Positions 3,175-37,507 of a DNA stretch of 64,000 nucleotides are shown piece after piece. Origin of the DNA: Phycisphaerales bacterium (GTDB taxonomy: Bacteria > Planctomycetota > Phycisphaerae > Phycisphaerales > SM1A02); the NCBI GenBank assembly GCA_036475395.1, contig JAZFYE010000126.1, positions 6,850 to 70,849 of the forward strand, in the 5' to 3' direction. A program made the translations under genes and the position numbers. The first letter of the stretch is position 1. Each line of letters starts with the position of its first letter. The notes below the pieces were generated by a model that made no database searches, was not told where the DNA came from, and saw nothing but the letters and a program-made list of their open reading frames with translations.

Positions 3175-5268
3175 CTAGTTCTCGAGAATCTTCTTGCCCT
3201 TCATCACGATGTCCTTCGACGCCTTTATGGTGATCTGGCCGGATCCCTTGATCGTGATGTCTTTCCCCTCGATGTTGATGGTGCCGTCCTTTTTCATCAG
3301 TATGCTGGCTTTTCCCGTCTTGATGAGAATCTGATCGCCAGCGTCGATCAGGATGTTCTTCTTAACCTTGGTAGTCTGATTGTTGCCAATCGTTATCGTG
3401 TCGTTGCCCTTGGTGACGGTGAGGTCCCGATCGCCCTCGGCGATGGTGATCGATTCGTTGCCCTTGCTGACCGTCTCGGTGCGGTTGCCCTCCGCGATGG
3501 TGATCGTTTCGTTGCCTTTGCTGACTGTCTCGGTGCGGTCGCCCTTCGCGATCGTAATCGTTTCGTCGCCTTCCTTGACCGTCTCGGTGCGGTTGTTCCA
3601 GATCTCGATCGTCTGGCTGCCGTCGTCTGAATCGGAGTTACCGACGACCAGGACCTGGTTGTTGTGGATCTCGATCGTCTGGTCACCCTTGTCCTTGTCA
3701 TCGAAGCCGACCTTCAGAGTGTCGTTGTTCTCGACGACCCTGTTGTAGTCCCTTTCAGCATGTACGTAAATTTCCTCCTTGTCCTTCTTGTCCTCAAAGC
3801 GGATCTCGTTGAAGTTGTCGCCGGACCCGTCCTTGCTGCTGCGCGACTTGAAACCGCTCTGCGTCTGGTTGTCCGGCAGCGCGTATGGGTACATGTTGTC
3901 GCCGTTGTAGACTCGCCCGGTGATGATCGGCCGATCGGGATCACCCTCAAGGAACTCGACGATCACTTCCTGGCCAATTCGCGGCAGGAACACGCCGCCC
4001 CAATTCGCTCCCGCCCACGGTTGTGAGACTCGAATCCAGCACGAACTCTCCTCATCCGATTCTCCGTATCTATCCCAGTGGAATTGCAGCTTGACGCGCC
4101 CGTGCTTCTCGGTCCAGATCTCCTCACCGTCCTTGCCCACCACCACCGCCGTCTGTGGTCCCTGAATCACCGGCTTAGGCGTGACGCGTGGAGGCCGAAA
4201 CGGCTGCGATGAATCCATCGCGCTGAACTGACACTGGAAGAACACGCCCCCGCCACCGCCAGCCGCCGAGTGATACAAGTCGGATTCGAAATGGATCGTC
4301 GTCGACATGACCAGGTACTCGCGTTCCTGGTCCTCGCGCGTATGGTCCGTCACCTTAAACGTGTACCCGGAGCAGATCCCCCAGGCATCTGATTCTGACG
4401 AGACGATCTCATGCGAGGCCTGGAGCTCCTGGATCCGGACCTTGGCGTAGCTGTCGCCGTCGGCGTTCTCAGTGTATTCACCGGGGTAGTCGAAGATCTC
4501 ATAGTCGGCGGCGGCGTGGTCGCGTTGGATGACTGACCTGGCAAGCAGGTCCTTCTTTGGCTTTTCAAAATCGTAATCGTTGAGCGCATAGACACCCGGC
4601 TGAATCGCCTGTTCGAGGGTCCAGCCGCCAATGTGCTCGATGGGGCTGGTGCTGCCGGCTGGTCGGTATGGAATCTCTTCGTAGCCGGGAAAGGTCTGGT
4701 GGGCGCTGAGGGAATCTGCGAGCACCAGCGTGTGCTTGCCCTCAGCATGCTCAAAGAAATAGTAGATTCCCTCCTGCTCCATCAGCCGGCTGACGAAGTT
4801 GAAATCCGTCTCGCGATACTGGACGCAGTATTCCCGGGTTCGGTAACTGCCGCTCAGTGAGTCGTCGAAATCGGTGAAGCCGGCGTCTCGAAAGACCTCC
4901 TTGATGATTTCGGGAACGGTCTTCTCCTGAAAGATTCTGCAGTCCGCGGTCCGGGTCAGGAGCCAGAGCCAGGGGACGATCGTCGCCTGGTACTCTGCGA
5001 GGTCACCTTCGGCGCGGGTCTGCACAAACCGACTGACGTAGCCGTTGAAGTAGCGCGTTCTGTCGTCCGGCAACTCGAGCTGAACGGTCATGTTCTGCCC
5101 CACGATGTCAGCAAAGTTGATACTCTGCTCTTCGCTGACCAGCGTGAGGTTGTAGTGAAACAGTCGGCTGAGCCGCTCTGTGCCGTTCATGCTCCTGAGC
5201 AAAAGAACGTCGTCGCCGAGCGGGCTGCTGACGGCCACTTTTCTGTATTGTTGTGTGTATTGAGGCAT
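3175..5268 (-). CDS. vgrG: T6SS spike protein VgrG (TssI)
   Basis: 697 aa with an ATG start. MPQYTQQYRKVAVSSPLGDDVLLLRSMNGTERLSRLFHYNLTL is a classic VgrG N-terminus. gp5 OB motif GQEVIVEFLEGDPDRPIITGRVYN is present. The C-terminus is a beta-helix of repeats (ETITIAEGNRTETVSKGN...). Confidence 0.95.
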   Translation of the reverse strand: MPQYTQQYRKVAVSSPLGDDVLLLRSMNGTERLSRLFHYNLTLVSEEQSINFADIVGQNMTVQLELPDDRTRYFNGYVSRFVQTRAEGDLAEYQATIVPWLWLLTRTADCRIFQEKTVPEIIKEVFRDAGFTDFDDSLSGSYRTREYCVQYRETDFNFVSRLMEQEGIYYFFEHAEGKHTLVLADSLSAHQTFPGYEEIPYRPAGSTSPIEHIGGWTLEQAIQPGVYALNDYDFEKPKKDLLARSVIQRDHAAADYEIFDYPGEYTENADGDSYAKVRIQELQASHEIVSSESDAWGICSGYTFKVTDHTREDQEREYLVMSTTIHFESDLYHSAAGGGGGVFFQCQFSAMDSSQPFRPPRVTPKPVIQGPQTAVVVGKDGEEIWTEKHGRVKLQFHWDRYGESDEESSCWIRVSQPWAGANWGGVFLPRIGQEVIVEFLEGDPDRPIITGRVYNGDNMYPYALPDNQTQSGFKSRSSKDGSGDNFNEIRFEDKKDKEEIYVHAERDYNRVVENNDTLKVGFDDKDKGDQTIEIHNNQVLVVGNSDSDDGSQTIEIWNNRTETVKEGDETITIAKGDRTETVSKGNETITIAEGNRTETVSKGNESITIAEGDRDLTVTKGNDTITIGNNQTTKVKKNILIDAGDQILIKTGKASILMKKDGTINIEGKDITIKGSGQITIKASKDIVMKGKKILEN
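3401..3616 (-). repeat. in-frame 54-bp tandem repeats (about 4 units) encoding the VgrG C-terminal beta-helix
   Basis: tcgttgcc recurs at 3401, 3455, 3509 and 3563, a 54-nt (18-aa) period. The corresponding protein units are KGDRTETVSKGNETITIA / EGNRTETVSKGNESITIA. Confidence 0.8.
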
Positions 5269-5724: not shown

Positions 5725-6171
5725 ATAGTCACCGATGCGCACCTGGACAGGTATCTGGCTCAACCCAAATGGGGAATATCAGATAATTGAACCCTCGTGA
5801 GACACGTTTCCGAGCACGCCCAGATCGTGCCGAAAAACGGTGCCGCAGCGCGATCTGGGACTCGTGAACTGGCGTCACCTGCATGCTTGCCGCCCGCAGC
5901 GTCCGATTAAGCCAACGTAGTTCGGGACTCGGTGTGACCGGTCGTCTACCGCTACGGTTCGATGGCAACTGGCAGGCTTCGACTTCGGTCCGATGAAGCA
6001 GGTTCGTCGACCTCGCTTATCAATTTGATTGCGGAAACAGCTTCCGTTATACAATCCGCTAGTGTAATCTGACGGAGTGCCAGAGTTCAAATCATATTGT
6101 CGAATGCCCTCCTTGGATTGAATCCCTGGTAGGGCATAGAGGAATCCGCAGAGCCTTCTGGGAGAACCAAA

Positions 6172-7341
6172 ATGGGATGCAGAGTACCGGGCCCCCTTTG
6201 TATTTCGCGCAGCAACAGCGTCACCCCTGACAAACAAACCCTGGTGCGTGCGCGATCTCTTCCACCTGGCCCAACAGGCAGGGCTGCTGGACGATCACAG
6301 CCTGATGAATCGCACAATGAATTTTGGGGAGACGTTAAAGAAGAATTGAATGAGTTTTTGGAGGGTGTTAAAGAAGAAGCGAATGAATTTTGGGAAGGCG
6401 TTAAAGAGTGGACCGTTGAAGAGCCTCTCGCAATCTGGACCTTGGCGAAACTCTTCGATCAATGGGGTGAAATCAGTCACGAATGGTTCTGGAGGTTCCT
6501 CGCCCATTATCTCACCGGAGACGGTGAAGAGTTTAAGGAATTCAAGACGGTTCCATTCGAGTGGCAGAACGCGATTCGCAAAAACTGGCGAACGAGCCAA
6601 GTGTTTGCGGTTCAGAACAAGTACCCGACTCGCTATCCGAAGGGCAAGAAGTTTCGGATTAAACCGTATGACTGGAAGGGGCTCGATGACTTGACCCGGT
6701 CTCTTGGGCATTTCGATTTGACGTATTCCAAAAAAGATAAGAAAGAGACATACGTTATCGAAGACAGATACGAATTCAACTATTACGATGAAATGAACGG
6801 GAGCCTCTCGGAACATGGAGGGAAGAACGTGAAGCTTCCCAAGTGGTTATCCGAGCAGTTGCTCAGGCTAATGCCGCGAAATGAATACAAGGTTCCGGAG
6901 GGGACAGACAAGGGTAAAGTTCAGAAGTTTACAATGAAACAGAAAGACGAGGATACCTGGGACATTATTTTGCCAACAGGTTGGTTGCAAGAGAACGGTA
7001 AACCTTTTCAGTTTAGAGCCGAGTTTAGTTCCACATTTCACATCGAAGACTATATCGGGACGTTTGATGAAAGTGGGTTTTTTGCCGGCTTGGATGAAGA
7101 TGACTTAGCACATGACTTGATGTTCTTACGAAATTCGAATTCCGTAAGAAAGGTGTTTGAGTCTCTTCAGAAGAATCATGCATCCGAAGGCAAAGAAGTT
7201 GCCGAGCATTACATTCTCGGCTTAGCGGCTCGCCAGTCTTCACCAAAGCTCAGCGATCTGAAAGGCAAGACTAATCTCGTAGACCTGCTCAAAAGCGTTC
7301 TGAAGGATTCTCCCGTCGTTCAAAAGCTGAGTCAGTTGTAA
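6172..7341 (+). CDS. hypothetical protein in a low-GC stretch, with three N-terminal 11-aa repeats; candidate T6SS cargo or orphan gene
   Basis: 389-aa ORF. ATG 6172 is preceded by GGGAG 7 nt upstream. Composition is protein-like (K/E/F/W/Y rich). GC drops to about 43% in hand-counted lines at 6361 and 6901. I recognise no family. Confidence 0.6.
   Translation: MGCRVPGPLCISRSNSVTPDKQTLVRARSLPPGPTGRAAGRSQPDESHNEFWGDVKEELNEFLEGVKEEANEFWEGVKEWTVEEPLAIWTLAKLFDQWGEISHEWFWRFLAHYLTGDGEEFKEFKTVPFEWQNAIRKNWRTSQVFAVQNKYPTRYPKGKKFRIKPYDWKGLDDLTRSLGHFDLTYSKKDKKETYVIEDRYEFNYYDEMNGSLSEHGGKNVKLPKWLSEQLLRLMPRNEYKVPEGTDKGKVQKFTMKQKDEDTWDIILPTGWLQENGKPFQFRAEFSSTFHIEDYIGTFDESGFFAGLDEDDLAHDLMFLRNSNSVRKVFESLQKNHASEGKEVAEHYILGLAARQSSPKLSDLKGKTNLVDLLKSVLKDSPVVQKLSQL
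6316..6414 (+). repeat. 3 x 33-bp in-frame tandem repeat
   Basis: Encodes NEFWGDVKEEL / NEFLEGVKEEA / NEFWEGVKEWT. Confidence 0.8.
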
Positions 7342-7358
7342 CCCGCATCTGCAAACGC

Positions 7359-7931
7359 TCATCTGGCCGATGCCGCCTGAAGCAAATCGAAAAGAAAAGG
7401 GGTTAGGACTCGTGGTTTTGTGTTTTCTGAGCTGGACGAACTCTGGGGCGGCTCATCAAGGGAATGGCCGAGGTCGCCGCCGAACACGCGGTAACCACGC
7501 CGGTCGTATTCACAGCCGCCGGACATCGCGGGAACGTTGCATTTCAACCTTGTGGAGACGTAAGGCGAGACAGCGGGAAGCTCGTCCTTGGGGAAGTACA
7601 GCCTGATCCGGTCCGCAAGTTTGCCCGCAGCGCTGAGGGCATTGGAGCGGATCCATTGCACGCTTTCCTGATAGGCTTCGAGCGGACTCTGGCTGTCAAA
7701 TCGCCTCATGAAGTGGTGTTTTTGCCCATAGTCCAACCAGTGCCCAAGATTGAAAATGTCCCGGATATCTGTGGCCACAACAGCTACCGGCAATGTGGCC
7801 GAACTCAGGCCACGCACTAGCGGATGGCTCGAACAGGACGTGGCCAGTTCTTTAACGGCCTGAGCAATAAGTCTCTTGTGGCCTGCCAGGTCGCTCATCG
7901 TGACAACCCGGTTCCGTGGGCGACAGTTCAC
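7359..7931 (-). CDS. hypothetical protein, convergent with 6172-7341
   Basis: 190-aa ORF, or 179 aa from ATG 7898. Amino-acid composition is more protein-like than the antisense ORF 7464-7820. No convincing RBS and no recognised family. Confidence 0.4.
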   Translation of the reverse strand: MNCRPRNRVVTMSDLAGHKRLIAQAVKELATSCSSHPLVRGLSSATLPVAVVATDIRDIFNLGHWLDYGQKHHFMRRFDSQSPLEAYQESVQWIRSNALSAAGKLADRIRLYFPKDELPAVSPYVSTRLKCNVPAMSGGCEYDRRGYRVFGGDLGHSLDEPPQSSSSSENTKPRVLTPFLFDLLQAASAR

Positions 7932-8060
7932 CAGCCCGTGCCTGCATCTGACCGCCAGCAGAAATGCTGCTGCAGACGGTCACCGGTTACAGATCAGGCT
8001 ACCATAGAGGTATGAACCAAATCATGGCAAGATGAAACTTTGGCGGGATGAACCGGCATA

Positions 8061-9671
8061 GTGTCGGATTCGATCATGGGTGGCACCATGCCGGGACGGA
8101 TGGAATTCGAGTTTCAATTCAGCCAGGCCCAGGCGCGGCCGGCCGCTGCGAGCCGCGACAAGTGGCCGATGCGCATCCTGATCATGGGTGACTTCGGCGG
8201 GCGAGGCCACCGCGGACGGCCTGACGACGCGGCCCCTCTGGGCGATCGGCCCATCATGCGCGTGGACGTTGACAACTTTCAGGACGTGATGTATCGCGTT
8301 GCGCCGCAGCTGCATCTGCGGCTTGGCGGTGCATCCGGACCAGACATGACCGTCCAGTTCAGGCAGCTCGACGATTTTCACCCAGATCAGCTGTATGGAA
8401 AACTGGAAGTGTTTCTGGCCCTGCGGCAGTTGAGAACGCGCCTGCTGGATCCTGCGACCTTTGCCGAGGCGGCGGAGGAACTCAAACGTCCAGCGGGAAC
8501 CCAGACGGCGTCGACTCAACCGAGTGCAGGTTCCGGTGGTTCGGAGGCGGAGGCTGCGGCCGACGGCGTCGAATCGGAGTTTGAGCGGCTGTTGGGAGGC
8601 AAGCCGGTGGCGTCGCAGGCGCGGCCGGGAACCAGTGCCCACCCCGCAGCGCAGCCGGCCGGAGCGCAAGGCGACGTGATGCGGTTCATCCGGCACATTG
8701 TCGCGCCGCACGTTCTACCGGAAACCGATCCACAACAACGGCAGTTTGTGGCGTCGATCGACGTCATGACCGCAGAGCTGATGTGCGACGTCCTGCACGA
8801 CCCGGCCTTCCAGGCGCTGGAGTCGGCATGGCGCGCCGTGCACTGGCTCATAAGCAGGCTTGAAACAGGCCAGGAACTAGGAATCTACTTGCTTGACGCG
8901 ACCAGGGATGAATTGGCAGCGGACATCAGCGCGGTGGGTAGTGATCTGGAGGCCTCCAAAGCCCACCAGCTATTAGGCGAACAGAGCGTGCAGACGCCGG
9001 GGGGTCAGCCGTGGTCACTTCTGGTGGGCAACTTCACGTTTGGGACCCAACGGCATGACGTGGCGCTATTGGCGGCGCTCGGCGCCATCGCTTCACAAGC
9101 CGGTGGGCCGTTTCTCGCGAAGGCCGAGCCGGGTGTCTTGGGTTGCCGTAGCCTGGTCGAGACCCCGGACCCACACGACTGGCGGCTCGACGATCCCGCC
9201 ACCGAAAAGCGCTGGCAGGCACTGCGCACCAGCTCCGGGGCGTCCTGGATCGGACTGGCGCTGCCGCGCGTGATGCTTCGCCTGCCGTACGGCCGCCAGA
9301 CCGACCCGATCGAGCGGTTCGAATTCGAGGAACTCTCGCACCGGCGTGAACACGAGGCGTATCTCTGGGGCAACCCGGCGTTTGCCTGCGCGATGCTGAT
9401 CGCGATGTCGTTCCAGGAACAAGGTTGGTCCATGCGACTGGGCGACCACCTGGTTATCGATGATCTTCCCGTACACACCTACAAGAACAACGCGGACGAA
9501 TCGACCATGAAGCCGTGTGCAGAGGTCTGCCTCAGTGAGAGCGGCGCCGAGGCGATCCTGAAACGCGGTGTCATGCCCGTGATGAGCTATCGCAACCGAA
9601 ATGCAGTTCGCGTGATGCGGTTCCAGTCCGTGGCGGATCCACCGGCACCGCTGGCCGGCCCCTGGGGGTGA
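8061..9671 (+). CDS. single-chain TssB-TssC-like (VipA-VipB-like) sheath-derived fusion protein lacking the TssC C-terminal ~130 aa
   Basis: The N-terminal part parallels the canonical TssB of this window: PMRILIMGDFGG / MRVDVDNFQDVM / VQFRQLDDFHPDQL versus LPFVMGVMADLSG / LEIDVDNFDDRM / ITFESMDDFSPAAV. After a low-complexity linker it parallels TssC: HDPAFQALESAWRAVHWLI, GGQPWSLLVGNFTFG, LALPRVMLRLPYG versus HHPNFQQVEGSWRGLHHLV, GGEPYGCLIGDYDFD, LTMPRFLSRLPYG. The start is uncertain: GTG 8061, or ATG at 8076, 8088 or 8100. Confidence 0.8.
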   Translation: MSDSIMGGTMPGRMEFEFQFSQAQARPAAASRDKWPMRILIMGDFGGRGHRGRPDDAAPLGDRPIMRVDVDNFQDVMYRVAPQLHLRLGGASGPDMTVQFRQLDDFHPDQLYGKLEVFLALRQLRTRLLDPATFAEAAEELKRPAGTQTASTQPSAGSGGSEAEAAADGVESEFERLLGGKPVASQARPGTSAHPAAQPAGAQGDVMRFIRHIVAPHVLPETDPQQRQFVASIDVMTAELMCDVLHDPAFQALESAWRAVHWLISRLETGQELGIYLLDATRDELAADISAVGSDLEASKAHQLLGEQSVQTPGGQPWSLLVGNFTFGTQRHDVALLAALGAIASQAGGPFLAKAEPGVLGCRSLVETPDPHDWRLDDPATEKRWQALRTSSGASWIGLALPRVMLRLPYGRQTDPIERFEFEELSHRREHEAYLWGNPAFACAMLIAMSFQEQGWSMRLGDHLVIDDLPVHTYKNNADESTMKPCAEVCLSESGAEAILKRGVMPVMSYRNRNAVRVMRFQSVADPPAPLAGPWG

Positions 9672-9696
9672 TACCGTCCGACTCACCGCATGGTGC

Positions 9697-9712
9697 TGCG
9701 TCAATTGACGCA
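9697..9712. promoter_or_regulatory. perfect 16-bp palindrome TGCGTCAATTGACGCA (operator-like or hairpin)
   Basis: Read directly from the sequence, 26 nt after the stop of 8061-9671. There is no flanking U-tract on either strand, so it is not a classical terminator. Confidence 0.25.
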
Positions 9713-9828
9713 AAAGTGAACATGGTCATCGTGGCCCGACACGGTCCAGTTCTGACCTAGCTTCTTCTTGACCGACACTTCCCATTTGACCTTCGCTCGA
9801 CTCCACCGCCGAGCTTTCCGAGCACGAG

Positions 9829-9902
9829 TGTAACCGCCCCCCCCCGGAAACCCAAGTTCCAGTCGCTTGCTGCTGACCGGAATCGACGGTGACAGGCGGG
9901 CC
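9829..9902 (-). repeat. copy B of the ~70-nt conserved element, inverted relative to copy A
   Basis: Reverse complement: ggcccgcctgtcaccgtcgattccggtcagcagcaagcgactggaacttgggtttccgggggggggcggttaca. It differs from copy A at only a few positions. Confidence 0.85.
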
Positions 9903-9961
9903 CAGAAAAAGATTCCCCTCCCCTTTTCTTGCCAGCCATGAACAGTTCGCGCTGTAGATCA

Positions 9962-10642
9962 TTAGAAGAAGAAGGGTACTGGCAATTCGATTTGCCCCCA
10001 CATCTTTGACGTAACGATCACCTTGCATGGCATATAGTCGAACAGTGGCCGCTCACTCTGACCAGGGTAGTGGAACAGACTCTTCGCTTTCTGAGCGAGG
10101 GCCGAAAGGTTCGGCCTCTGTTGTGGTTTCGCATTGTAGGGCCACGGATTCTCGGAATTGAGGACTTTCACGCGGACCTCGAAACGATAAGCATCTGTGG
10201 TCTTGCTCCGACTACAATGCTGTTGCAATCCGGCCTTGATCATATCGGTCACGGCCCCCCAAGCTGCCTGGCCCGTCGCCTTGTTCTCGATGAATATGTG
10301 CTGCATTCCTCTTTTCGATTCCCACTTTACTTTGACGTCCGGGTTGGTGTTCGTCCGAATACACATGTGCCCGTGCCCTCCGAAGTGGTTGAGCGCTTGC
10401 GTCAACGTTTCCAGCTCGAACGTCTTCGCTTGCAATTGGATATCCACGTCTGCGGCCCACTTCTTTAGACCGAGTGCCTGTTTCTCGGCGTGCTTCTCAT
10501 TCTTTAGATCATCGGGATGGCTCCCGACGTAGGCCCTTGCATACCCGCTGATATACTTTAGCAATCCAAAGGCATTTCCCACTTCTTGTCTGCACCTCAT
10601 CAGGGAACCGTGCGCTTCCTTCAAGTCACTGTCGATTGTCAT
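9962..10642 (-). CDS. hypothetical protein (orphan, about 50-55% GC)
   Basis: 226 aa. ATG 10642 has GGGGAGGA 8-9 nt upstream. Composition is protein-like. No recognised family. Confidence 0.65.
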   Translation of the reverse strand: MTIDSDLKEAHGSLMRCRQEVGNAFGLLKYISGYARAYVGSHPDDLKNEKHAEKQALGLKKWAADVDIQLQAKTFELETLTQALNHFGGHGHMCIRTNTNPDVKVKWESKRGMQHIFIENKATGQAAWGAVTDMIKAGLQQHCSRSKTTDAYRFEVRVKVLNSENPWPYNAKPQQRPNLSALAQKAKSLFHYPGQSERPLFDYMPCKVIVTSKMWGQIELPVPFFF

Positions 10643-12472: not shown

Positions 12473-15307
12473 TCAGTCGAACGCATACGCAAACTGGCCG
12501 TCCGCCGCGCTCACCTGAACGCGGTCGATCTGCTCACCTTCCATCATGCGCGTCAGGAATTCGTGGCTGATCTCCGGCAGCAACGTGTGGGTAAGGATCG
12601 CGTCCACCATGCGAGCGCCGCTCTCCACCTCGGTGCATCGGTCCGCGATCAGATCGATCACCGCGTCATCGTACATGAAGGGAACCTGGTGCTGCTCTTG
12701 CAGACGGTTCTCGATCCGTTTCAACTGGAGACGGATGATCAACTGGATCATCTCGTCGCCGAGCGGAAAGTAGGGAACCACCACGAGCCTGCCCAGGAGG
12801 GCCGCGGGGAAGACCTTGCGCAGCGGCTCGCGCAAGGCTTTGGCGATGCCTTGCGGATCGGGCATCAGCTCGGGATCCTTGCACATGTTCATGATGAGAT
12901 CAGAGCCGACATTGCTGGTCAGCAGGATGATCGTGTTCTTGAAGTCGATCAGCCGGCCCTCACCGTCTTCCATCCTCCCCTTGTCGAAAACTTGGTAGAA
13001 GATCTCATGCACATCGGGGTGGGCTTTTTCGACCTCATCGAGCAAGACGATGCTGTAGGGTCGCCGACGCACGGCCTCGGTCAGAACGCCGCCCTCGCCA
13101 TAGCCGACGTAACCGGGCGGAGCGCCCTTGAGGGTCGAGACCGTGTGCGCTTCCTGAAACTCGCTCATGTTGATGGTGATGACGTTCTGCTCACCGCCGT
13201 AGAGCACTTCAGCGAGGGCCAGGGCGGATTCGGTCTTGCCGACGCCGGACGGGCCCACCAGAAGGAACACGCCGACCGGCCGAGCGGGATTGTCCAGACG
13301 GGCCCGTGAAGTCTGGATGCGCTTTGCGAGTGCCTCAAGCGCGTGCCGCTGGCCAATCACACGCTGCTCCATGGTATCCGCCAGGTTGAGCACCGCTTCG
13401 ATCTCGTTCTTGACCATTCGACCGACGGGGATGCCTGTCCAGTCGGCGACAACTGAAGCGATGGCTTGCTCGTCAACGCTGGGAAGGATCAGTGGATCCT
13501 CGCCCTGGAACTCTTCCAGCTGCGCCTGAAGCCCCCGCAACTCGTCCAGTAGTGCTTGGCGTTGCTCTGCAGTGAGCGGCTCATTATTGCCGCCGTCCCC
13601 AATCGGCGCCGTGGCGGCCACAGTGACCGAAGTTGGGTCGGCCACCGCGCTGGCGACACCGTCGCTCGAATCGACCGGCGGAATCCCCGATCCGCCTTCG
13701 CTGCCCATTTCTTGTTGCTCTGCGTCATCGGCTTCGCTCTCAATCGTACCGGGGGGCTCTTGGCGCAGCTTGCCGCGAATATCAAGGATCTTGCTCACGA
13801 GCTCCCGTTCGGTCCTCCAGCGCTCTTCCAATTCAGACACGCGATTTCGTTCACTTTCGAGTCGTTCGGCGATCTCGGTCCGACGCGCCTCGTGATCCAA
13901 GCCGACCCGCACCTCCCGATCGATGATTTCCAACTCGGTCTCCAGCGCTGCGATGCATCGCCGACAATCGTCAACCTTGGCAGGTGTCGCGTGCTGTGAG
14001 ATCCCCACCCGCGCGCAGGTCGTATCCAGTACGCTGACCGCTTTGTCTGGCAGTTGGCGGTCAGCGATGTACCGATGGGAAAGCCGCACCGCCGCCACCA
14101 ACGCCTCGTCAAGAATCTGAACCTCGTGGTGCTTCTCCAGGGTTGAAGCGAGTCCCCGCATCATCCCTACCGCCTTTTCCTCGGACGGCTCATCCACCTT
14201 GACAACCTGAAATCGCCTGGTGAGCGCAGGATCTTTCTCGATGTACTTCTTGTACTCACCCCACGTTGTGGCGGCCACCGTCCGCAAGGTCCCGCGGGCG
14301 AGCGCAGGCTTGAGCAAATTGGCGGCGTCACCCTGTCCGGCTGCACCACCGGCCCCGATGAGGGTGTGCGCCTCGTCAATAAACAGAATGATGGGCTTGG
14401 GCGAGGCGTGGACTTCCTCTATGACCTGCTTCAGGCGGTTCTCGAACTCGCCCTTCATGCTCGCTCCAGCTTGGAGGAGTCCAAGGTCCAGAGCCCGCAG
14501 GGAGACATCTCGCAGGGCCGGTGGAACGTCGCCCGCCGCGATGCGAAGCGCGAAGCCCTCGACTACCGCTGTCTTGCCCACGCCCGCCTCCCCGGTCAGG
14601 ATCGGGTTGTTCTGTCGCCGACGCATCACGATGTCGACGATCTGCCGAATCTCCCCGTCCCGTCCGACAATCGGGTCAATCTCCCCGTTGCGAGCCTTCT
14701 CGGTAAGGTCAACGGAGAATCTCGCCAGCGCCTCCTGCTTTCCCATCTGGGCAGGTGGGACCGCTCCGCTCGCTTCCCCTGGCGACACGCCGCCTCCCAC
14801 CGCCGAGCCATCGGAAGCGACCAGCGTGTCCTCGACGGACCCACCGACGATCTTGTCAAACGAATCGCTGAGCTCCTCAGCCTTTACGCGGGCGAACTCG
14901 TTGGAGATCGCCAACAGCACGCTACGGAGTCCCGGCGTCTTGAGAATCCCGACCAGAACATACCCCGTGCGAACAACCGAATCGCCAAACATGAGGGTGC
15001 TGTACGTCCATCCCTCGCGTACCGCTTCCTCAAGGTGCGGGGAAAAATCCGAAATCGACGTCGCGCCGCGTGGCAATGCGTCAAGCGACGCGGTCAGGTC
15101 TGTTGCCAGTCGCGACGGATCGATATCGAAGTGATCAACAATCCGATGCCAGTCGGTGTTCTGCGTCTGCAACAGCTGATGAATCCAGTGTGATAACTCA
15201 ACATACGGGTTGCCACGCATCTTGCAGAACACCGTCGCCGCTTCGACGGATTTGTAGGCGAGGCTGTTGAGTTTACCAAAGAGGGATGCCCGGGGGATTT
15301 CTGCCAT
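12473..15307 (-). CDS. clpV: T6SS AAA+ ATPase ClpV (TssH)
   Basis: 944 aa with an ATG start. Clp N-domain start MAEIPRASLFGKLNSLAYKSVEAA. Two Walker A motifs, GEAGVGKTAVVEG and GPSGVGKTESALALAE. It sits after tssG. Confidence 0.95.
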   Translation of the reverse strand: MAEIPRASLFGKLNSLAYKSVEAATVFCKMRGNPYVELSHWIHQLLQTQNTDWHRIVDHFDIDPSRLATDLTASLDALPRGATSISDFSPHLEEAVREGWTYSTLMFGDSVVRTGYVLVGILKTPGLRSVLLAISNEFARVKAEELSDSFDKIVGGSVEDTLVASDGSAVGGGVSPGEASGAVPPAQMGKQEALARFSVDLTEKARNGEIDPIVGRDGEIRQIVDIVMRRRQNNPILTGEAGVGKTAVVEGFALRIAAGDVPPALRDVSLRALDLGLLQAGASMKGEFENRLKQVIEEVHASPKPIILFIDEAHTLIGAGGAAGQGDAANLLKPALARGTLRTVAATTWGEYKKYIEKDPALTRRFQVVKVDEPSEEKAVGMMRGLASTLEKHHEVQILDEALVAAVRLSHRYIADRQLPDKAVSVLDTTCARVGISQHATPAKVDDCRRCIAALETELEIIDREVRVGLDHEARRTEIAERLESERNRVSELEERWRTERELVSKILDIRGKLRQEPPGTIESEADDAEQQEMGSEGGSGIPPVDSSDGVASAVADPTSVTVAATAPIGDGGNNEPLTAEQRQALLDELRGLQAQLEEFQGEDPLILPSVDEQAIASVVADWTGIPVGRMVKNEIEAVLNLADTMEQRVIGQRHALEALAKRIQTSRARLDNPARPVGVFLLVGPSGVGKTESALALAEVLYGGEQNVITINMSEFQEAHTVSTLKGAPPGYVGYGEGGVLTEAVRRRPYSIVLLDEVEKAHPDVHEIFYQVFDKGRMEDGEGRLIDFKNTIILLTSNVGSDLIMNMCKDPELMPDPQGIAKALREPLRKVFPAALLGRLVVVPYFPLGDEMIQLIIRLQLKRIENRLQEQHQVPFMYDDAVIDLIADRCTEVESGARMVDAILTHTLLPEISHEFLTRMMEGEQIDRVQVSAADGQFAYAFD

Positions 15308-16366: not shown

Positions 16367-18234
16367 CGCTTTACCTCTCCACGCCGTTCAGTACAGATGA
16401 CCGTTTCCGTAAAGACGTTCGTCGTTACGTACTTGGCAAAGAAACGATCAAGCACTGCACCGAGTAGAAACAATCCGTTCTCATCGAAGGTCGCGTCGTC
16501 CATGGTTACCGTGATCTCAAGACCTCTAGCGAAGGACGTCGGTCCGCCGACTCCAATCCGCCTAACAATCGAGCGACTGTGAACAGCTAGGATGCCGTCA
16601 ATCTGTTTCCGGATTGCTAACTCGCCCGCATCGCCATACAGAGCCAGGAGCTCGCGCAACGATTCGGCAGCCTCATGATGATCCGTATCGAGGATTGACA
16701 GATAATTCAGCGAGAGGTGGCTGACCAATCGCCACGCGAACTCCCCCTCCGCCCACGACGCTCGTGGCGGCGTTGGGCGCCCCAGGCATCGCACCGCCTG
16801 CATCGGCGCTCCGGTATCGAGCGTGAAGTCAGTCGCACCATCTCCCAGCGGCATGTGTAACGGAAGATCACGATTGGTACACCGTGCCTCTACTCCCAGC
16901 TGTTTCAGATCGGCGCGGTACGGAGCTTCCGCGCTGTCCACAAGAGAGATATACATTTCACTGCCCGCGTAGGAAGTGGTTCGTCGATAGCCCAGGCGCT
17001 CGCGTTCTGAGAGCGTCCGGGGAACCCGCTGCACACTGTAGTACCGGCCAGCCCCTTCGCGTGTTTGATCGTGCGCCGCATAGAACGATTCGAAGACCTG
17101 CTCTGTCGAGTGATCCCGTCCTCCATAGCCGGTGACGTTCAGAATCTGATAGATCTCGTAGTCAAGGGGCGCTGTCCGATCGGCCACCACATTGAACTCT
17201 GAAAATCGATCAGAGAGATGGATCCGATCGAGACGCTTCCGGAACAGGTTGATTGCAGGTGTGCAGAACAAGGCAAAGTTCCGATCGGTGATCGCGACAT
17301 CAAGTTCGGGCTCCACCTCATCCAGTAGCACCGAAATATCCACCGCGTTGCCATTGCACCGGGCGAGGCCCTCCAGCAATCCCGCGATCTCGACAAACAT
17401 AAACCGCTGCGGGAAGGCAAAGAATTCCTGAAGTAGGCGGTATCCCTGGAACGATCGCGGGCCGTAGGGAAGCATGGCCTGATCGTCGTCGAACCCAACG
17501 TGGCACACGACCGATGCGGCGAGCTGCTCGGCAAAGGACGGTGGGCGGCTCACCGCGTGTACCACCACCCCGATCACGTGTGTGAAGAACTGCTCGTAGA
17601 TACGCATCGCCTGACTTCGCGGTCCGCGGATATGAACGACCAAGCGATCGAGCGGCAGATCCGAGAATTGGAACCCTTCCGCACAAGTTAATCTCATGCG
17701 AATGACCGCTCGGGCCCCGCGATCGTCCGGCAACCGAAGCTCTCCGATGTCTCGTGAGTGATATCGCGCCTCTGTCAGGGTGATCGGCCAAAGAACGACG
17801 TCATGCCCGGTGGTATAGATGCAGCGCGTCTGCTGCTTTTCGGCAAGGCCACTTCGAAGCGTGCTCCCGCTGGGTATCAGGTATCCCTCCTGGAGCGATC
17901 CCTGAGTCCTGTCCGGCTCGAACTGCAGCATCGCCATTGACGGCGTCTGACTCAAGTAGTGCGGATAGACCGTTTCGAAGATGCTTTGGGTTAGCCGAGG
18001 GAACCCGGCATCAAGCTTCAATTGCACCCGCGCCGTCAAGAACGCACAGCCTTCGAGCAACCGTTCCACAAACGGATCTGGGCACACCTCGGTGCCAGAG
18101 GGATCGAGGCTCAGTCCGCGCGCGATATCCGGATGCTCACGCGCGAACTCGCCGGCGACATACCGGAGGTGCTCCAGCTCGCGCTCGTAGTAGGCGCTGA
18201 GCCGGTGATGATAATGGCGTGCCCCCTCAGCCAC
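16330..18234 (-). CDS. tssF: T6SS baseplate protein TssF
   Basis: SAYYERELEHLRYVAGEFAREHPDIARGL is the hallmark TssF/ImpG N-terminus. The track ORF (to 18495, TTG) runs 270 nt into tssE as Arg/Ser-rich sequence. An in-frame GTG at 18234 overlaps the tssE stop by 8 nt and is the likely start. Confidence 0.9.
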   Translation of the reverse strand: MAEGARHYHHRLSAYYERELEHLRYVAGEFAREHPDIARGLSLDPSGTEVCPDPFVERLLEGCAFLTARVQLKLDAGFPRLTQSIFETVYPHYLSQTPSMAMLQFEPDRTQGSLQEGYLIPSGSTLRSGLAEKQQTRCIYTTGHDVVLWPITLTEARYHSRDIGELRLPDDRGARAVIRMRLTCAEGFQFSDLPLDRLVVHIRGPRSQAMRIYEQFFTHVIGVVVHAVSRPPSFAEQLAASVVCHVGFDDDQAMLPYGPRSFQGYRLLQEFFAFPQRFMFVEIAGLLEGLARCNGNAVDISVLLDEVEPELDVAITDRNFALFCTPAINLFRKRLDRIHLSDRFSEFNVVADRTAPLDYEIYQILNVTGYGGRDHSTEQVFESFYAAHDQTREGAGRYYSVQRVPRTLSERERLGYRRTTSYAGSEMYISLVDSAEAPYRADLKQLGVEARCTNRDLPLHMPLGDGATDFTLDTGAPMQAVRCLGRPTPPRASWAEGEFAWRLVSHLSLNYLSILDTDHHEAAESLRELLALYGDAGELAIRKQIDGILAVHSRSIVRRIGVGGPTSFARGLEITVTMDDATFDENGLFLLGAVLDRFFAKYVTTNVFTETVICTERRGEVKRWPTRAGLRPIS

Positions 18235-18715
18235 GGCTTCGATCTTGAATGTCGCATCGACCAGACTCGAGATCGACCTGTGTCCTGATATAGATTTCTT
18301 CGGGCGACTGTGGCCCCCACAACTGTCCACGGATCTCGAAGGAAACCGCATTGTGCGTCGAATCAATCTTCCGAACGATGAGCGACCCCGCGGTGATCCG
18401 CGGTTCGAAGCGCTGGATGCTCGTTGCGATGCTGCGCTCGAGTTCGCCCTCAGCGAGTTGCGTTTCGGTGAGACCGGAAATCGGTGTAATACCAAAGTTC
18501 AGCACGGATCGCGTGATTTCAGGAAACTCGTCCCACTCCAACGTCGAGGATCGGCAGGAGGTATTGAGGAGCGCTTCAATATCGGCGAGAACGGAATCTC
18601 GATATCGTTGAAGCCAGGGTAGGCGGCGCCCACCCGCTTCATCTCTTTTTCTGTTCGTGATGCGATCGAGCAGCGACGGCAGCCGTCGCTCGGTCGACGC
18701 GGATCGCTCAGCCAT
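18227..18715 (-). CDS. tssE: T6SS baseplate gp25-like protein TssE
   Basis: LPSLLDRITNRK and SIATSIQRFEPRI are gp25/TssE motifs. ATG 18715 overlaps the tagJ stop by 8 nt. The upstream part of the track ORF (to 18943) is Arg-rich and overlaps tagJ. Confidence 0.85.
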   Translation of the reverse strand: MAERSASTERRLPSLLDRITNRKRDEAGGRRLPWLQRYRDSVLADIEALLNTSCRSSTLEWDEFPEITRSVLNFGITPISGLTETQLAEGELERSIATSIQRFEPRITAGSLIVRKIDSTHNAVSFEIRGQLWGPQSPEEIYIRTQVDLESGRCDIQDRSRG

Positions 18716-19535
18716 GGTTGTCTGCCGTTTCCGCCCTGGATTCGGTTCCGTTTTCCATAACGATGTGACGAATCTCAAGCAATGGAAACTCGTTCGCATT
18801 CGAAACCAACATTCGCTGACCGACGCCGACATAGAAGCCGCTCGCCCGCTCCTCCCAGACCGTCGTGCGCGCCATGGCAACTCGGCTGTCGTCGGCCTCG
18901 CTCGAGTGAGGGTAACGCGACGGCACCAAACCGGCCGACTCACCGCCGTTGGCCCACTTGAAGTACGCCCGTACCCATACCACGTCCCGCAGCTCCGTTG
19001 GAGGTTCGATCACGATCTGGCGGATAGCCGAAAACGGTATCCAGAAGTATCGGCCCTCCACAATCGCTTCGAGGATGGGGCCGAGACGGCTGTCGGCATC
19101 ACCGATCCACTCGAATGGCTGACCGTCGATCGACCCGGAAGCCGGTTCAGCTGCGTCGAACGCCTGTTCAAACAAAGCTTGGGCTTGGTCATAGCGACCC
19201 TCAGCAGAAAGCTGGTTGGCGCTGATAAGCCAGCCAATCCACGGCGGCGGTTCCCCGAACACGATCGGCGTTCGCTGACCTAAGAAGACCTGCTCGCGAA
19301 ATGCCTCACTTTGCAGGGCGGGCCGATATACCGCGGCCATGAGCAGGTTGGCCGAGTCCAAGTCAGCTGCAACATTCAGCTGTGTCAGCGCACGATCCCA
19401 TTGGCCGAGGACGCAGAGCAATTGGAACAGAAAGACCCGACGCTCCCCGTCAGAAGGATCGTCCCGAACCGCCTCTTGAAGTTCGGACAAAGCCTCTGAG
19501 AGATCGCCTTCCTTCAGGCTCTGCTCGGCCAGCAT
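18708..19535 (-). CDS. tagJ: T6SS accessory protein TagJ (ImpE family)
   Basis: N-terminus LAEQSLKEGDLSEALSELQEAVRDDPSDGERRVFLFQLLCVLGQWDRALTQL and C-terminus RYFWIPFSAIRQI...LRDVVWVRA...LVPSRYPHS match the ImpE pattern. ATG 19535 has AAGGAAGG 8 nt upstream. Confidence 0.8.
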   Translation of the reverse strand: MLAEQSLKEGDLSEALSELQEAVRDDPSDGERRVFLFQLLCVLGQWDRALTQLNVAADLDSANLLMAAVYRPALQSEAFREQVFLGQRTPIVFGEPPPWIGWLISANQLSAEGRYDQAQALFEQAFDAAEPASGSIDGQPFEWIGDADSRLGPILEAIVEGRYFWIPFSAIRQIVIEPPTELRDVVWVRAYFKWANGGESAGLVPSRYPHSSEADDSRVAMARTTVWEERASGFYVGVGQRMLVSNANEFPLLEIRHIVMENGTESRAETADNHG

Positions 19536-19642
19536 TGAGATCACCTTCCTTCATCACATGCCACAGCGCCGATACACGCCTGTCTGTCGAGCATCGCATC
19601 GACACTGTGCATCGCATGCCAACGACCGCAACCATCTCTGGA

Positions 19643-20128
19643 TCAGTCTTGCTTGTTCGTCTCCAGGTTCCACGTCCGATCCACGGTGGCTCCGGCCGCG
19701 CCGGCCTGATCGATCGGAGTGTACTCCCATTTGATCTTTCCGTAGGCGAAGCTGACTTCCTCCATCGGGCGATCGCCCCCCTGGGAGCCGCTCGGTGAGA
19801 CGGCGCTCACAATCACATCGGTCAAGGTGTACTTCATGAAGCAGTGCTTGTCTTCGGTGGCCAGACAGAACTCCGCCTCGACCGTCGGAATGTGCTTGCC
19901 ATTAGCGCAATAAATGTGCAGATCCGCGGTGGCCTTATCGATGGTCTTCGTGACGCTGAAAGGCATGAAGTCGGCGCGACCGCCTGTGCGACCGCCCGTC
20001 CCACTCGCACCCGACACCGGCTGCGAGACGCCATGGTTGAACGCCACGATCTCGATCCAGTCCGTGTGTCCGTCGTCCGTGCTCTCACCATCTATTCCCT
20101 CGATGCTCAAGAACATATCAGTGGCCAT
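19643..20128 (-). CDS. hcp: T6SS inner tube protein Hcp (TssD)
   Basis: 161 aa. MATDMFLSIEGIDGESTDDGHTDWIEIVAFNHGVSQPV is a canonical Hcp start. AAAGGAG RBS. Confidence 0.95.
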   Translation of the reverse strand: MATDMFLSIEGIDGESTDDGHTDWIEIVAFNHGVSQPVSGASGTGGRTGGRADFMPFSVTKTIDKATADLHIYCANGKHIPTVEAEFCLATEDKHCFMKYTLTDVIVSAVSPSGSQGGDRPMEEVSFAYGKIKWEYTPIDQAGAAGATVDRTWNLETNKQD

Positions 20129-20222: not shown

Positions 20223-21725
20223 CTACGCACCTTTGACAGAGGGTAGTTTCGAAACCAGTCGCAGTGAGACCGTCAGACCCTCAAGCTGATAATGCGGTCT
20301 CAGGAAAATCTTAGCGGTGTAGTAGCCGGGGTTCCCCTCGACTTCGAGCACCTGGACTTCAGCGGCGGCGAGCGGCTTCCGCGCCTTGTCCTCCTCCGAT
20401 GCCGTCTCCGGGTTCGGCTCAACATAGTTTTGGACCCACCTGTTGAGCCACTTCTCCATGTCGGAGCGCTCCTTGAACGAACCGATCTTGTCACGAACGA
20501 TGCACTTAAGGAAGTGCCCAAATCGAGAGGCCGCGAACATATAAGGTAGTCGCGCGCCAAGGTTCGCGTTTGCCGTCGCATCCGGGTCGTCGTACTCGGC
20601 CGGCTTGTGAAGCGATTGCGCTCCGATGAAGACCGAGTAGTCGGTGTTCTTCCAGTGCGAGAGCGGGATGAGCCCGTTCTTGGCGAGTTCAGCCTCGCGA
20701 CGGTCAGTGATGGCGATCTCAGTCGGGCATTTCATGTCGACACCGCCGTCATCAGTCGGGAAGGTGTGGCAGGGCAAGCCTTCGACCATCCCGCCGCTCT
20801 CCACCCCGCGGATCCGAGTGCACCAACCGTACAGCTTGAATGCCTTATTGATGTTCACCCCCATCGCGTAGGAGGCATTTGACCAAGTGTATTTGCCGTG
20901 ATCGGATCCGTCCGTGGTCTCCTCGAATGCAAACTCCTCGACGGGGTTGGTCTTTGCGCCGTAGGGCAGTCGCGACAGGAAGCGAGGCATTGTGAGTCCG
21001 ATGTATTTGGCATCGTCCGCCTCACGAAGCGACCGCCACGCGGCGTAATCGGCGGTTTGGAAGATCTTCGTGATGTCCCGTGGGTCGCCGAGCTGCTGCC
21101 ACGACTCCATATTCGCCAAGGACGGCGCGGCGGCCGCGAAAAACGGTGCATGAGCGGCGGCCGCGATCTGTGCCATCTCCCCGAGCAATTCGACATCCGG
21201 CGGCGAATTATCAAAATCGTAGTCGCCAATAAGGCATCCATACGGCTCGCCGCCGGGCATTCCGAACTCGTGCTCGTAGATGGCCTTGAACATTGGGCTC
21301 TGGTCCCACAACGTCCCCTTGAACTTCCTCAAAGTCTTGGAAAGCTCCTTCTTGGAGACGTTGAGCACGCGGATCTTGAGCATCTCGTCCGTCTCGGTGT
21401 TGTTGACGAGATGATGAAGGCCTCGCCACGACCCCTCTACTTGTTGGAAGTTGGGGTGGTGGATGATTTGATTGATCTGTTCGGTTAGTCTCTCGTCGAG
21501 CTCGGCGACGTACGCCTCCATCGTCTTGACGGCGTCCTCGGGAACGAGGGCCTTGGATTCCGCGAGCACGTGCTTCGCGAATTCGCGCACCGCGAACTCG
21601 ACCTGAGCCTGCGCGGCGTCGGTTTTCGCGCGAACAGCTCGGCTCATGATGTCAATGAAGACATCCGGATTTTCTTCCTCGACGGCCTGGACCTGCGACT
21701 GTGCCTGTTCATTTGCTTCAGCCAT
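20223..21725 (-). CDS. tssC: T6SS contractile sheath large subunit TssC (VipB)
   Basis: HHPNFQQVEGSWRGLHHLV, GGEPYGCLIGDYDFD, LTMPRFLSRLPYG and NLGARLPYMFAASRFGHFLK are present. ATG 21725 (MAEANEQ...) overlaps the tssB stop by 8 nt. The track start at 21758 is a GTG inside tssB. Confidence 0.95.
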   Translation of the reverse strand: MAEANEQAQSQVQAVEEENPDVFIDIMSRAVRAKTDAAQAQVEFAVREFAKHVLAESKALVPEDAVKTMEAYVAELDERLTEQINQIIHHPNFQQVEGSWRGLHHLVNNTETDEMLKIRVLNVSKKELSKTLRKFKGTLWDQSPMFKAIYEHEFGMPGGEPYGCLIGDYDFDNSPPDVELLGEMAQIAAAAHAPFFAAAAPSLANMESWQQLGDPRDITKIFQTADYAAWRSLREADDAKYIGLTMPRFLSRLPYGAKTNPVEEFAFEETTDGSDHGKYTWSNASYAMGVNINKAFKLYGWCTRIRGVESGGMVEGLPCHTFPTDDGGVDMKCPTEIAITDRREAELAKNGLIPLSHWKNTDYSVFIGAQSLHKPAEYDDPDATANANLGARLPYMFAASRFGHFLKCIVRDKIGSFKERSDMEKWLNRWVQNYVEPNPETASEEDKARKPLAAAEVQVLEVEGNPGYYTAKIFLRPHYQLEGLTVSLRLVSKLPSVKGA

Positions 21726-22311
21726 CGGATTGCGACTCCTCGGGTTGCGACTCTCCACCAGCGACTGCGTCCCCGTTGCCGCCTGCGGCCGCGGTCGGCG
21801 CAGAGGCCAGAGCTTCCAGCAGACCCTTCTTGTTCATTAAATCCACCATGAGTTTCTCAGCCTTCGCCTTCCCGTCCATTTTGGTCAGAAACTCCGAAAG
21901 CTGCGTCCGGGCGTCGAGCAACTCCTTCAGCGCATCGACGTTACGGGCCACCGCGGCGGGAGAAAAGTCGTCCATGCTCTCGAACGTGATATCCACGCTC
22001 AGTTCCCCCTCGTTGGTCAGCGTGTTCGGGACGCGCATGGTCACCTTGGGTTTCAACGCCTTCATGCGATCGTCGAAGTTGTCGACGTCGATCTCGAGGA
22101 ACTTGCGATCGGGGATAGCTCCCCGTGCCGTCTTGTGTTTGTCGTCAACGTCATCGCCCGTCTCTTGCTGGCCGCTCAGATCTGCCATGACCCCCATCAC
22201 AAACGGCAAGCTGATCATCTTCTCTGCCCCGTAGAGCTCGAGGTCGTACTCGATTTGTACTCGCGGAGCGCGGTTGCGGCCGATGAACTTCTGGGCACTT
22301 TTCTTGGCCAT
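21718..22311 (-). CDS. tssB: T6SS contractile sheath small subunit TssB (VipA)
   Basis: MAKKSAQKFIGRNRAPRVQIEYDLELYGAEKMISLPFVMGVMADLSG is canonical VipA. 197 aa. Confidence 0.95.
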   Translation of the reverse strand: MAKKSAQKFIGRNRAPRVQIEYDLELYGAEKMISLPFVMGVMADLSGQQETGDDVDDKHKTARGAIPDRKFLEIDVDNFDDRMKALKPKVTMRVPNTLTNEGELSVDITFESMDDFSPAAVARNVDALKELLDARTQLSEFLTKMDGKAKAEKLMVDLMNKKGLLEALASAPTAAAGGNGDAVAGGESQPEESQSDG

Positions 22312-23446: not shown

Positions 23447-23636
23447 GTTCCTTCTTGCCCGGGATGTCGCCGACTGGCGGCTGTTCGACGTCGTCGCGTC
23501 AACCGCCCCTTCGCGTTCTGCTAGGGAAACGGCGGCATCGCCCTTGAACGCCCCGCCGCTCAGTCGCACGACACGGCCCTGTCACAGGTCTCCTCTGGTC
23601 ATTCTACGATTACGGCGCGCGGCGCGCAGCGAACGA

Positions 23637-27140: not shown

Positions 27141-27207
27141 GGCTTCTCCTCGATTCGAACTGTCACCGCAAGGCACGTCACCCCGCAGCCACCCGTGCGG
27201 TCACGGC

Positions 27208-37494: not shown

Positions 37495-37507
37495 CACTTC
37501 GTTCGTC

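Follow-up and report, generated by a model that had tools for sequence, protein, structure and literature searches.

A conserved single-chain TssB-TssC-like sheath paralogue that ends before the handshake domain, in the type VI secretion cluster of a Phycisphaerales bacterium and its relatives in many phyla

The stretch of DNA considered here, termed the window, comprises 64,000 nucleotides of a Phycisphaerales bacterium of the Planctomycetota (GenBank assembly GCA_036475395.1, contig JAZFYE010000126.1, positions 6,850 to 70,849 of the forward strand) and harbours a complete type VI secretion system (T6SS), encoded throughout on the minus strand. On the plus strand, between clpV and vgrG and divergent from vgrG, an open reading frame (ORF) at 8061-9671 encodes a protein related to both subunits of the contractile sheath, TssB and TssC (VipA-VipB, HsiB1-HsiC1), in one polypeptide; FUS is used as working label for this fused sheath paralogue. 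A preliminary description, made from the DNA sequence, knew of no T6SS component of this kind as having been described, which is not quite right, as a VipA and VipB fusion has been noted bioinformatically and named TssCL, with no function proposed (Suria et al. 2022, Front Microbiol, PMC9515649). Neither another described TssB-TssC fusion nor a further paper using the name TssCL was found in the literature searched, and a 2026 review of T6SS accessory genes has no factor like FUS among those given.

The mechanically called frame starts from a GTG at 8061 and covers 536 residues up to 9671. The true start is almost certainly the ATG at 8088 (MPGRMEFEF...), because all relatives in the family alignment begin there and the two close relatives L085 and L086 have been called from the matching methionine, so that the gene would span 8088-9671 (+) and encode 527 residues. 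A promoter and terminator scan of 7300-10100 gave nothing on the plus strand upstream of 8088.

Two sheath regions are joined in this frame. The first, at 8160-8459 (+), corresponds to the β2/β3 strands and helices of TssB and is recognised by Pfam as T6SS_VipA (PF05591; residues 34-133, a partial match to profile positions 25-125 of 155 with an E value of 8.5e-13 and 48.8 bits against a gathering cutoff of 24), by BLASTP (27% identity between FUS 26-119 and residues 35-138 of the window TssB) and by profile matches to TssB chains in the Protein Data Bank (PDB); the C-terminal tail of TssB is missing from it. The second, at 8742-9632 (+), is a homologue of the TssC N-terminal domain (VipB, PF05943; residues 228-524, profile positions 2-300 of 301, E 1.4e-66) and is 30% identical to the window TssC (FUS 197-518, TssC 46-375 of 500). 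As the alignment ends at TssC residue 375, residues 376-500, about 125 in number, are without counterpart in FUS, and no match was obtained in the Pfam search to VipB_2 (PF18945), the gpW/gp25-like handshake domain with the C-terminal donor strand, while both VipB and VipB_2 (E 7.7e-44) are matched in the canonical TssC of the window. Equally, FUS stays below the curated cutoffs of the NCBIfam models for TssC (TIGR03355, 223.4 bits versus 271.5, profile positions 24-353 of 473 only) and TssB (TIGR03358, 44.8 bits versus 97.25). Between the two regions lies a disordered, compositionally simple linker of about 57 residues (8496-8666, +). Two sheath regions in one frame, a low-complexity linker of some 60 residues and a C-terminus short by about 130 residues had all been put forward in the preliminary description and are borne out by these comparisons, as is the presence elsewhere in the window of canonical tssB (21718-22311, -) and tssC (20223-21725, -), both full-length and above the cutoffs in Pfam and NCBIfam.

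The shortness of FUS does not stem from a split gene, a possibility ruled out by tblastn with the C-terminal 128 residues of TssC, which returned only tssC itself and noise, with no VipB_2-like coding remnant 3' of FUS. Instead, the protein closes with LAGPWG (9651-9668, +), a family-specific end, nearly invariant in the family alignment A1 and also present in TssCL, at the very point where canonical TssC runs on into the handshake domain.

A model of FUS by AlphaFold2, based on a 35-sequence alignment, reached a mean predicted local distance difference test score (pLDDT) of 78 and a predicted template modelling score of 0.81, with residues 1-21 and 137-193 predicted to be disordered (pLDDT 24-32 in the linker 137-193 and below 50 in the N-terminal arm). 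The last seven residues (521-527) have a pLDDT of 87, so that the C-terminal end probably packs back onto the domain. In Foldseek the model pairs best with TssC chains from solved sheaths, among them 5n8n_B (E 4.7e-21), while 5urx, 3j9g and 5urw superimpose with a root-mean-square deviation of about 3 Å over some 307 columns, and a profile search against PDB sequences aligns TssC chains at profile positions 205-511 and TssB chains at about 20-138. The protomer of the H1 sheath is built of three layers, an inner handshake sheet made of TssC β11/β12 together with a donated TssC β13 and a donated TssB β1, a middle layer with TssB β2-3 interlaced with TssC β1-4 and β8, and an outer layer with the tri-helix; the donor of TssC β13 lies in the same protofilament, that of TssB β1 is a neighbour within the same disc (Salih et al., PMC5807055). 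Projected onto this anatomy, FUS comprises, by its sequence matches, two of the three sheath layers, the middle and the outer one, and in addition an arm resembling β1, without the acceptor strands and without the C-terminal donor.

The arm, MPGRMEFEFQF (8088-8120, +), is assigned as counterpart of the β1 donor strand of TssB by position and pattern. Its consensus, starting in both cases from the initiator methionine, is M-P-G-R-[ML]-x-F-x-F in one class of relatives, here called RLLG, and M-P-x-P-[IF]-S-F-G-E-[LI]-x-[FV]-[ED]-[IV] in a second class, called LLD; TssB arms for comparison read (A/P)PRVQI(E/T)YDVE, and that of the window TssB APRVQIEYDLE. With the geometry of the H1 sheath (PMC5807055) we infer that the arm may be equivalent to TssB β1. 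FUS begins with MPGR right at the arm without the N-terminal helix of TssB, represented in the TssB proteins of the same loci by SSQKFIARNRA before PRVQIEYDVE; in the H1 system, TagJ (HsiE1) binds the N-terminus of HsiB1 (PMC4239648).

The most informative feature of FUS was missed in the preliminary description. While the linker is variable and gappy across the family alignment, a short motif within it is conserved, F-E-R-L-L-G in the window (8580-8597, +, inside ESEFERLLGGKP), with the consensus E-D-D-x-x-[TM]-[LF]-E-R-L-L-G, in which L is found in 121/121, G in 120/121 and R in 113/121 sequences; L169 and G170 are invariant in alignment A1. In a profile alignment SEFERLLGG coincides with the N-terminal LLDRII helix of the solved TssC 9n4v_A, so that the first 45 or so residues of TssC, described before as absent, are not simply so, and the motif is likely to be a relic of the TssC N-terminal helix, displaced into the interior of the chain.

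A database search with FUS retrieved 2,074 proteins at E<=1e-5, and the best 120 database clusters all consist of proteins of 481-584 residues with PF05591 and PF05943 and nothing else. At least 560 candidate FUS loci were found in a scan of one genome per species; the best 80 of these are near full-length with 40-54% identity and occur in Gammaproteobacteria (Competibacter, Sedimenticola, Methylobacter, Methylomicrobium), Betaproteobacteria (Rugamonas), Acidobacteriota, Desulfobacterota, Nitrospirota, Planctomycetota, Rokubacteria/Methylomirabilota, Eisenbacteria and Bacteriovoracaceae, with the nearest relatives in metagenome-assembled genomes of Gammaproteobacteria type. The proteins of the family, 480-585 residues long and hundreds in number, keep both the fusion and the LxGPW end, with L522, G524, P525 and W526 invariant or nearly so at the extreme C-terminus of alignment A1. 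As conservation thus spans the full length including the C-terminal end, the truncation point is ancestral. The protein has evolved as a TssB-TssC(N) fusion in one frame and does not result from read-through, as the preliminary description had concluded from tssB and tssC being separate, frame-shifted genes in canonical loci.

FUS is under purifying selection. Measured against two close relatives of 84% and 91% amino acid identity, the ratio of nonsynonymous to synonymous substitution rates (dN/dS, Nei-Gojobori) amounts to 0.27-0.30 for the gene as a whole and to 0.19-0.23 for its VipB-like part; in the closest pair the N-terminal part has a dN/dS of about 1 on very few substitutions. In a mirror-tree comparison over 15 loci, the pairwise FUS distances show a correlation of r 0.63-0.79 with the distances of TssE, TssF, TssC, TssB and Hcp from the T6SS core, and as its distances track theirs, FUS has travelled with its cluster. 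Judged by these sequence comparisons, the FUS family is real and old and not a relic.

The genomic setting tells the same association. In the window, tssA (22391-23569, -), tssB, tssC, hcp (19643-20128, -), tagJ (18708-19544, -), the gp25-like sheath initiator gene tssE (18227-18715, -; Pfam GPW_gp25), tssF and tssG (both likewise on the minus strand) and clpV (tssH; 12473-15307, -) follow each other in an order which we take to be that of the Pseudomonas aeruginosa H1-T6SS; FUS lies beyond clpV, before vgrG (3175-5268, -), which is followed by DUF6484 and DUF2169 genes, and tssK (36112-37497, -), tssL (35405-36115, -) and a TssM-like gene (30969-35408, -) make up a separate block. Most loci with sufficient flanks have FUS inside a T6SS cluster. 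At every FUS locus where the relevant part of the cluster was visible, tssB and tssC of canonical type are present as well. Three arrangements recur: vgrG and FUS are divergent in most gammaproteobacterial relatives, clpV, FUS and vgrG succeed each other on one strand in Desulfobacterota, and FUS directly precedes tssB and tssC in Acidobacteriota. The location on the strand opposite to the T6SS, pointed out before, accordingly holds for this window but is not a trait of the family. None of the small window ORFs flanking FUS recurs beside FUS at other loci.

The linker motif falls into classes that match those of the ClpV and TssC proteins encoded beside it. Among 85 sequences, which represent 84 loci and the window, 54 including the window belong to the RLLG class (Φ-x-R-L-L-G) and 28 loci to the LLD class ((S/T)G(S/N)-LLD(Q/E)ΦΦ-E), while two have neither motif and one is truncated. 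In the RLLG class, residues 6 and 87 of ClpV are R and D in all 14 readable loci, and the N-terminus of TssC is of a non-LLDEII type (FASLLNQEI) in 9/9; in the LLD class, the same ClpV residues are L or I and A or S, corresponding to an open groove, in all 11 readable loci, and the TssC N-terminus is of the GLLDQIVE type in 15/15. No discordant combination of motif, ClpV and TssC class occurred among the testable loci. The N-terminus of the window TssC, too, is not of the LLDEII type. In Vibrio, the LLDEII motif at the N-terminus of VipB is bound by the N-domain of ClpV (PMC4239648). The linker motif of the LLD class is in essence this LLDEII motif. By homology, the case that ClpV reads the motif would be strong for the LLD class; for the RLLG class, to which the window belongs with FERLLG and a ClpV carrying R6 and D87, thus lacking the pairing of an LLDEII-type motif with an open groove, it is weaker. 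Equally, the LLD motif is shared by FUS and a TssC of about 31% identity, two proteins that parted before the split of the classes, within a linker that cannot be aligned, which would point to selection by the same reader.

Integrating these observations, FUS is tentatively viewed as a conserved single-chain mimic of the sheath protomer that serves as accessory subunit of TagJ/H1-like and related T6SS, docks by its arm and presents a peptide to ClpV, a reading to which a little less than half of our belief is given. Through β-augmentation, the N-terminal arm would dock on a handshake acceptor. This could be a canonical TssC with its inner domain or else TssE, the gp25-like initiator, whose gene in the window thereby becomes the candidate source of the acceptor. 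Having lost its own handshake domain, FUS could not propagate a sheath, and a protein that attaches yet cannot propagate would be expected in low copy at one end of the sheath-baseplate assembly rather than all along the sheath. The former N-terminal helix of TssC would persist as a permanently exposed peptide in the disordered linker of about 60 residues, and this peptide, ΦERLLG or LLD(Q/E)ΦΦ, might be read by the N-domain of ClpV, for the window the proposed ClpV1-type reader with its charged groove. As a consequence, FUS might tether ClpV at the machine or, alternatively, represent an end subunit removable by ClpV, through which recycling would be coupled to the termination or the initiation of the sheath. 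The suggestion of a cap, terminator or assembly regulator, already made in the preliminary description, is in this respect plausible, since FUS retains the putative donor arm but neither the acceptor domain nor the C-terminal arm.

Several observations speak against this proposal. The equation of the arm with β1 draws on position and pattern. No single partner stands out in the mirror-tree analysis (partial r -0.10 to 0.20), TssE, at -0.1, included. The motif class changed once on the FUS tree (Fitch count 1), and with a single transition the covariation with ClpV and TssC counts as one evolutionary event. Furthermore, the N-domain of ClpV1-type proteins, a class defined by Förster et al., has a charged, blocked groove, and ClpV1-N did not bind the N-terminal peptide of HsiC1 (PMC4239648). 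As the groove is blocked, ΦERLLG, which is moreover unlike the motif FASLLNQEI of TssC in the same class, may have a reader other than the ClpV groove. Binding of the window motif in the groove by analogy with VipB, considered as a candidate mechanism, is weakened by the blocked R6/D87 groove of the window ClpV.

A more specific version, regarded as somewhat unlikely, has FUS as a six-copy ring, the missing end-piece of sheaths of the TagJ/short-TssA type, with the arms in free handshake slots and the peptide holding ClpV in place. The ring might sit on TssE, with FUS and TssE together resembling one split sheath protomer in a 'ring zero', or on the last sheath disc as chain terminator. In either position the exposed peptide would couple the site of sheath initiation or termination to recycling, and in TssCL this device would recur with a multivalent brush that binds ClpV.

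The main rival to docking at the machine is a soluble regulator or decoy that acts outside it, titrating or pre-concentrating ClpV, or another reader of the TssC helix, and thereby setting a threshold for disassembly; the motif arrays of TssCL would then be multivalent hubs. The exposure of the motif in a disordered linker and its multiplication to dozens of copies in TssCL would suit such a role, as would the lack of a partner-specific coevolution signal and, in the window, the divergent gene on the opposite strand, which would permit independent dosage. On the other hand, a peptide alone would suffice for titration, yet a sheath-like fold of about 450 residues and an arm are kept under purifying selection over the full length, and FUS resides within structural operons in Desulfobacterota and Acidobacteriota. 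A decoy is considered unlikely.

Alternatively, FUS might be a sheath subunit in its own right that co-polymerises with TssB and TssC and alters mechanics or recognition by ClpV. Middle and outer layers are kept, including the elements of the tri-helix that are packed vertically from protomer to protomer, FUS lies directly upstream of tssB-tssC in Acidobacteriota, and several sheath paralogues are used in other contractile systems such as Afp/PVC. Missing, however, are the strands of the handshake that join all known contractile sheaths, the acceptors as well as the C-terminal donor, and also the inner layer that contacts Hcp, and each FUS copy built in would break the mesh, which makes this alternative improbable. 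Improbable as well is a chaperone or adaptor for the loading of VgrG or effectors, in which the sheath-like fold would be re-used for handling of spike and cargo. Indeed, in most loci of Proteobacteria, Desulfobacterota and roseobacters vgrG adjoins FUS, either divergently or with FUS directly upstream, but in Acidobacteriota FUS precedes tssB and the sequence retrieved there showed no vgrG, FUS does not vary with the cargo modules, the known adaptor families DUF2169 and DUF4123 are present separately, and the fold is without a hint of spike binding. Finally, a decaying tssB-tssC duplicate, the pseudogene alternative of the preliminary description, for which the short C-terminus, the NCBIfam scores below cutoff and the N-terminal dN/dS of the closest pair might be quoted, is practically out of the question, refuted as it is by an architecture and end point common to hundreds of proteins in many phyla, by the low dN/dS, by the retention of family-specific motifs and by a confidently predicted fold.

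The surroundings of FUS offer additional observations. The region 6001-8000 between vgrG and FUS is low in guanine plus cytosine (0.51 versus about 0.60) and contains two ORFs, 6172-7341 (+) and 7359-7931 (-), which have no Pfam match, are not kept beside FUS in relatives and probably represent cargo that was acquired, or else a pair of effector and immunity genes. The N-terminus of TssE (18650-18715, -) begins with MAERSASTERRLPSLLDRIT, of which SLLDRI resembles the LLD-type motif of TssC and FUS; TssE of Leisingera has PSLLDRLT. Between tssA and the tssM-tssL-tssK block, the T6SS cluster contains an inserted two-partner secretion pair (23637-29796, -), composed of a TPS-domain exoprotein of 1179 residues (23637-27176) and a transporter of ShlB/FhaC type (27208-29796). 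In the TssM-like protein of 1479 residues, only the IcmF-related N-terminal domain is recognised, TssJ was not found in the window, and the ORFs 29926-30972 and 37508-38479 (-), which flank tssM and tssK, have homologues in a T6SS locus of Pirellulales (L052), which together suggests an atypical membrane complex. Further on, a protein of 1428 residues (38989-43275, -) has, towards its C-terminus, a weak FGE-sulfatase (TagR-like) domain, and a TagH/Fha-like FHA-domain protein is encoded separately (50155-51795, +); both may belong to a pathway by which the T6SS is activated post-translationally. At 54992-63849 (-), an all-TPR protein of 1436 residues, a Bac_transf sugar transferase, a chain-length-type P-loop ATPase and a DUF3485 protein occur together in what looks like an exopolysaccharide or PEP-CTERM-type locus unrelated to the T6SS.

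Accessory factors of T6SS have been catalogued almost wholly from few model Proteobacteria. With a spread over many phyla and a presence in most roseobacter clusters surveyed, FUS and TssCL mark a large, functionally undescribed part of environmental T6SS diversity. FUS can be seen as a natural dissection of the sheath protomer, in which outer layers and one arm have been retained and the polymerising core is gone. If a position at the sheath end and the recruitment of ClpV hold true, this would bear on what caps or terminates sheaths in systems with a short TssA, on how substrates are located by ClpV1-type ATPases whose groove is blocked and on the role of the huge acidic arrays of TssCL; ΦERLLG and LDxLLG peptides would be candidate ligands for ClpV1-type systems.

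Among known systems, the terminators, caps and initiators of contractile sheaths offer a possible functional parallel. T4 gp15/gp25, Afp16/Pvc16, TssE and TssA caps each bind to the handshake at an end of the sheath and do not propagate it. The anatomy of FUS, with donor arm kept and acceptor lost, would permit the same logic, but FUS has no kinship to them in sequence or fold and derives from the sheath subunit itself. With canonical TssB-TssC, FUS has in common the middle and outer layers, the TssB-like arm and what appears to be a relic of the TssC N-terminal helix; it differs in being one chain, in the lack of PF18945, in an identity of about 30%, in the missing TagJ-binding helix and in the turning of the TssC N-terminal helix into an internal linker peptide.

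An extra sheath paralogue beside tssB-tssC has also been realized in Agrobacterium, Rhizobium and Azospirillum (group 5 T6SS), with TssC40 of A. tumefaciens non-redundant with TssC41 for Hcp secretion (PMC3702570). FUS as a TssC40 of Agrobacterium type was nevertheless rejected for its different architecture; the Rhizobium and Azospirillum copies of TssC40 have VipB and VipB_2 and no VipA part, having lost the N-terminus and kept the handshake domain, so that the opposite end is truncated as compared to FUS. Two further candidates were set aside. TssW of Acidovorax citrulli is unrelated, being an outer-membrane protein. A 646-residue 'T6SS-associated protein' on the megaplasmid of Ralstonia solanacearum SL3022 (CP023017.1, 13932-15872, L090) covers 92% of the query and occupies the place of tssB and tssC with about their summed length; it was rejected as a member of the family. 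Most probably it arose by read-through of the whole genes or by a frameshift in the assembly, although a genuine fusion of full length is possible. On the Eleftheria terrae plasmid NZ_CP106952.1 (L088, 1-17713), a FUS-like variant of 592 residues is encoded right after tssK together with four tandem hcp genes, with R-body (RebB) genes 13 kb downstream and neither clpV nor tssL nor tssM within the 33 kb viewed.

The closest relative by architecture is TssCL, reported only from roseobacter genomes, where it is present in most T6SS clusters surveyed, with the architecture found otherwise only in Alphaproteobacteria (PMC9515649). Like FUS, TssCL combines VipA and VipB in one polypeptide, lies between clpV and vgrG in an H1-like cluster with separate tssB and tssC, and lacks VipB_2. 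In a protein-level search of plasmids, the distant relatives of FUS on roseobacter T6SS plasmids (28-33% identity) are the C-terminal 500 or so residues of proteins of 1,063-1,370 residues; the window FUS aligns end to end with this part of TssCL at 29-33% identity and shares with it the linker motif, in TssCL SxFQ[QR]LIG, and LxGPW. A midpoint-rooted neighbour-joining tree, built without bootstrap, groups FUS with TssCL and the Eleftheria terrae variant in a single clade, from which the 26 canonical TssC are separate. In contrast to FUS, with 527 residues, no extension, one motif and an end at GPW, TssCL has 1,063-1,684 residues, an N-terminal extension consisting of a second VipA domain or acidic arrays, dozens of motif copies and an acidic C-terminal tail. 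The extensions are acidic (28-35% aspartate plus glutamate) with arrays of LDxLLG / VLDGL motifs, as in Leisingera with 9 strict and 35 loose copies versus 0.3 and 3.0 in shuffled sequences, and the last six residues form an ALLxxL-type motif in 120/120 TssCL-type proteins listed, typically ...MDAELAALLxxL-COOH; the missing handshake domain and the motif arrays are not discussed in the description of TssCL (PMC9515649). As a separate observation, the TssCL-type proteins P0151, P0158, P0174, P0184, P0208 and P0213 carry the name 'pilus assembly protein FimV' at JGI or NCBI, likely a systematic mis-annotation, presumably from the acidic repeats. FUS thus shares its descent with TssCL but is a distinct short form of far wider spread than recognised, and this spread, together with the linker motif as a putative docking peptide matched to the ClpV and TssC class, is what the comparison newly adds.

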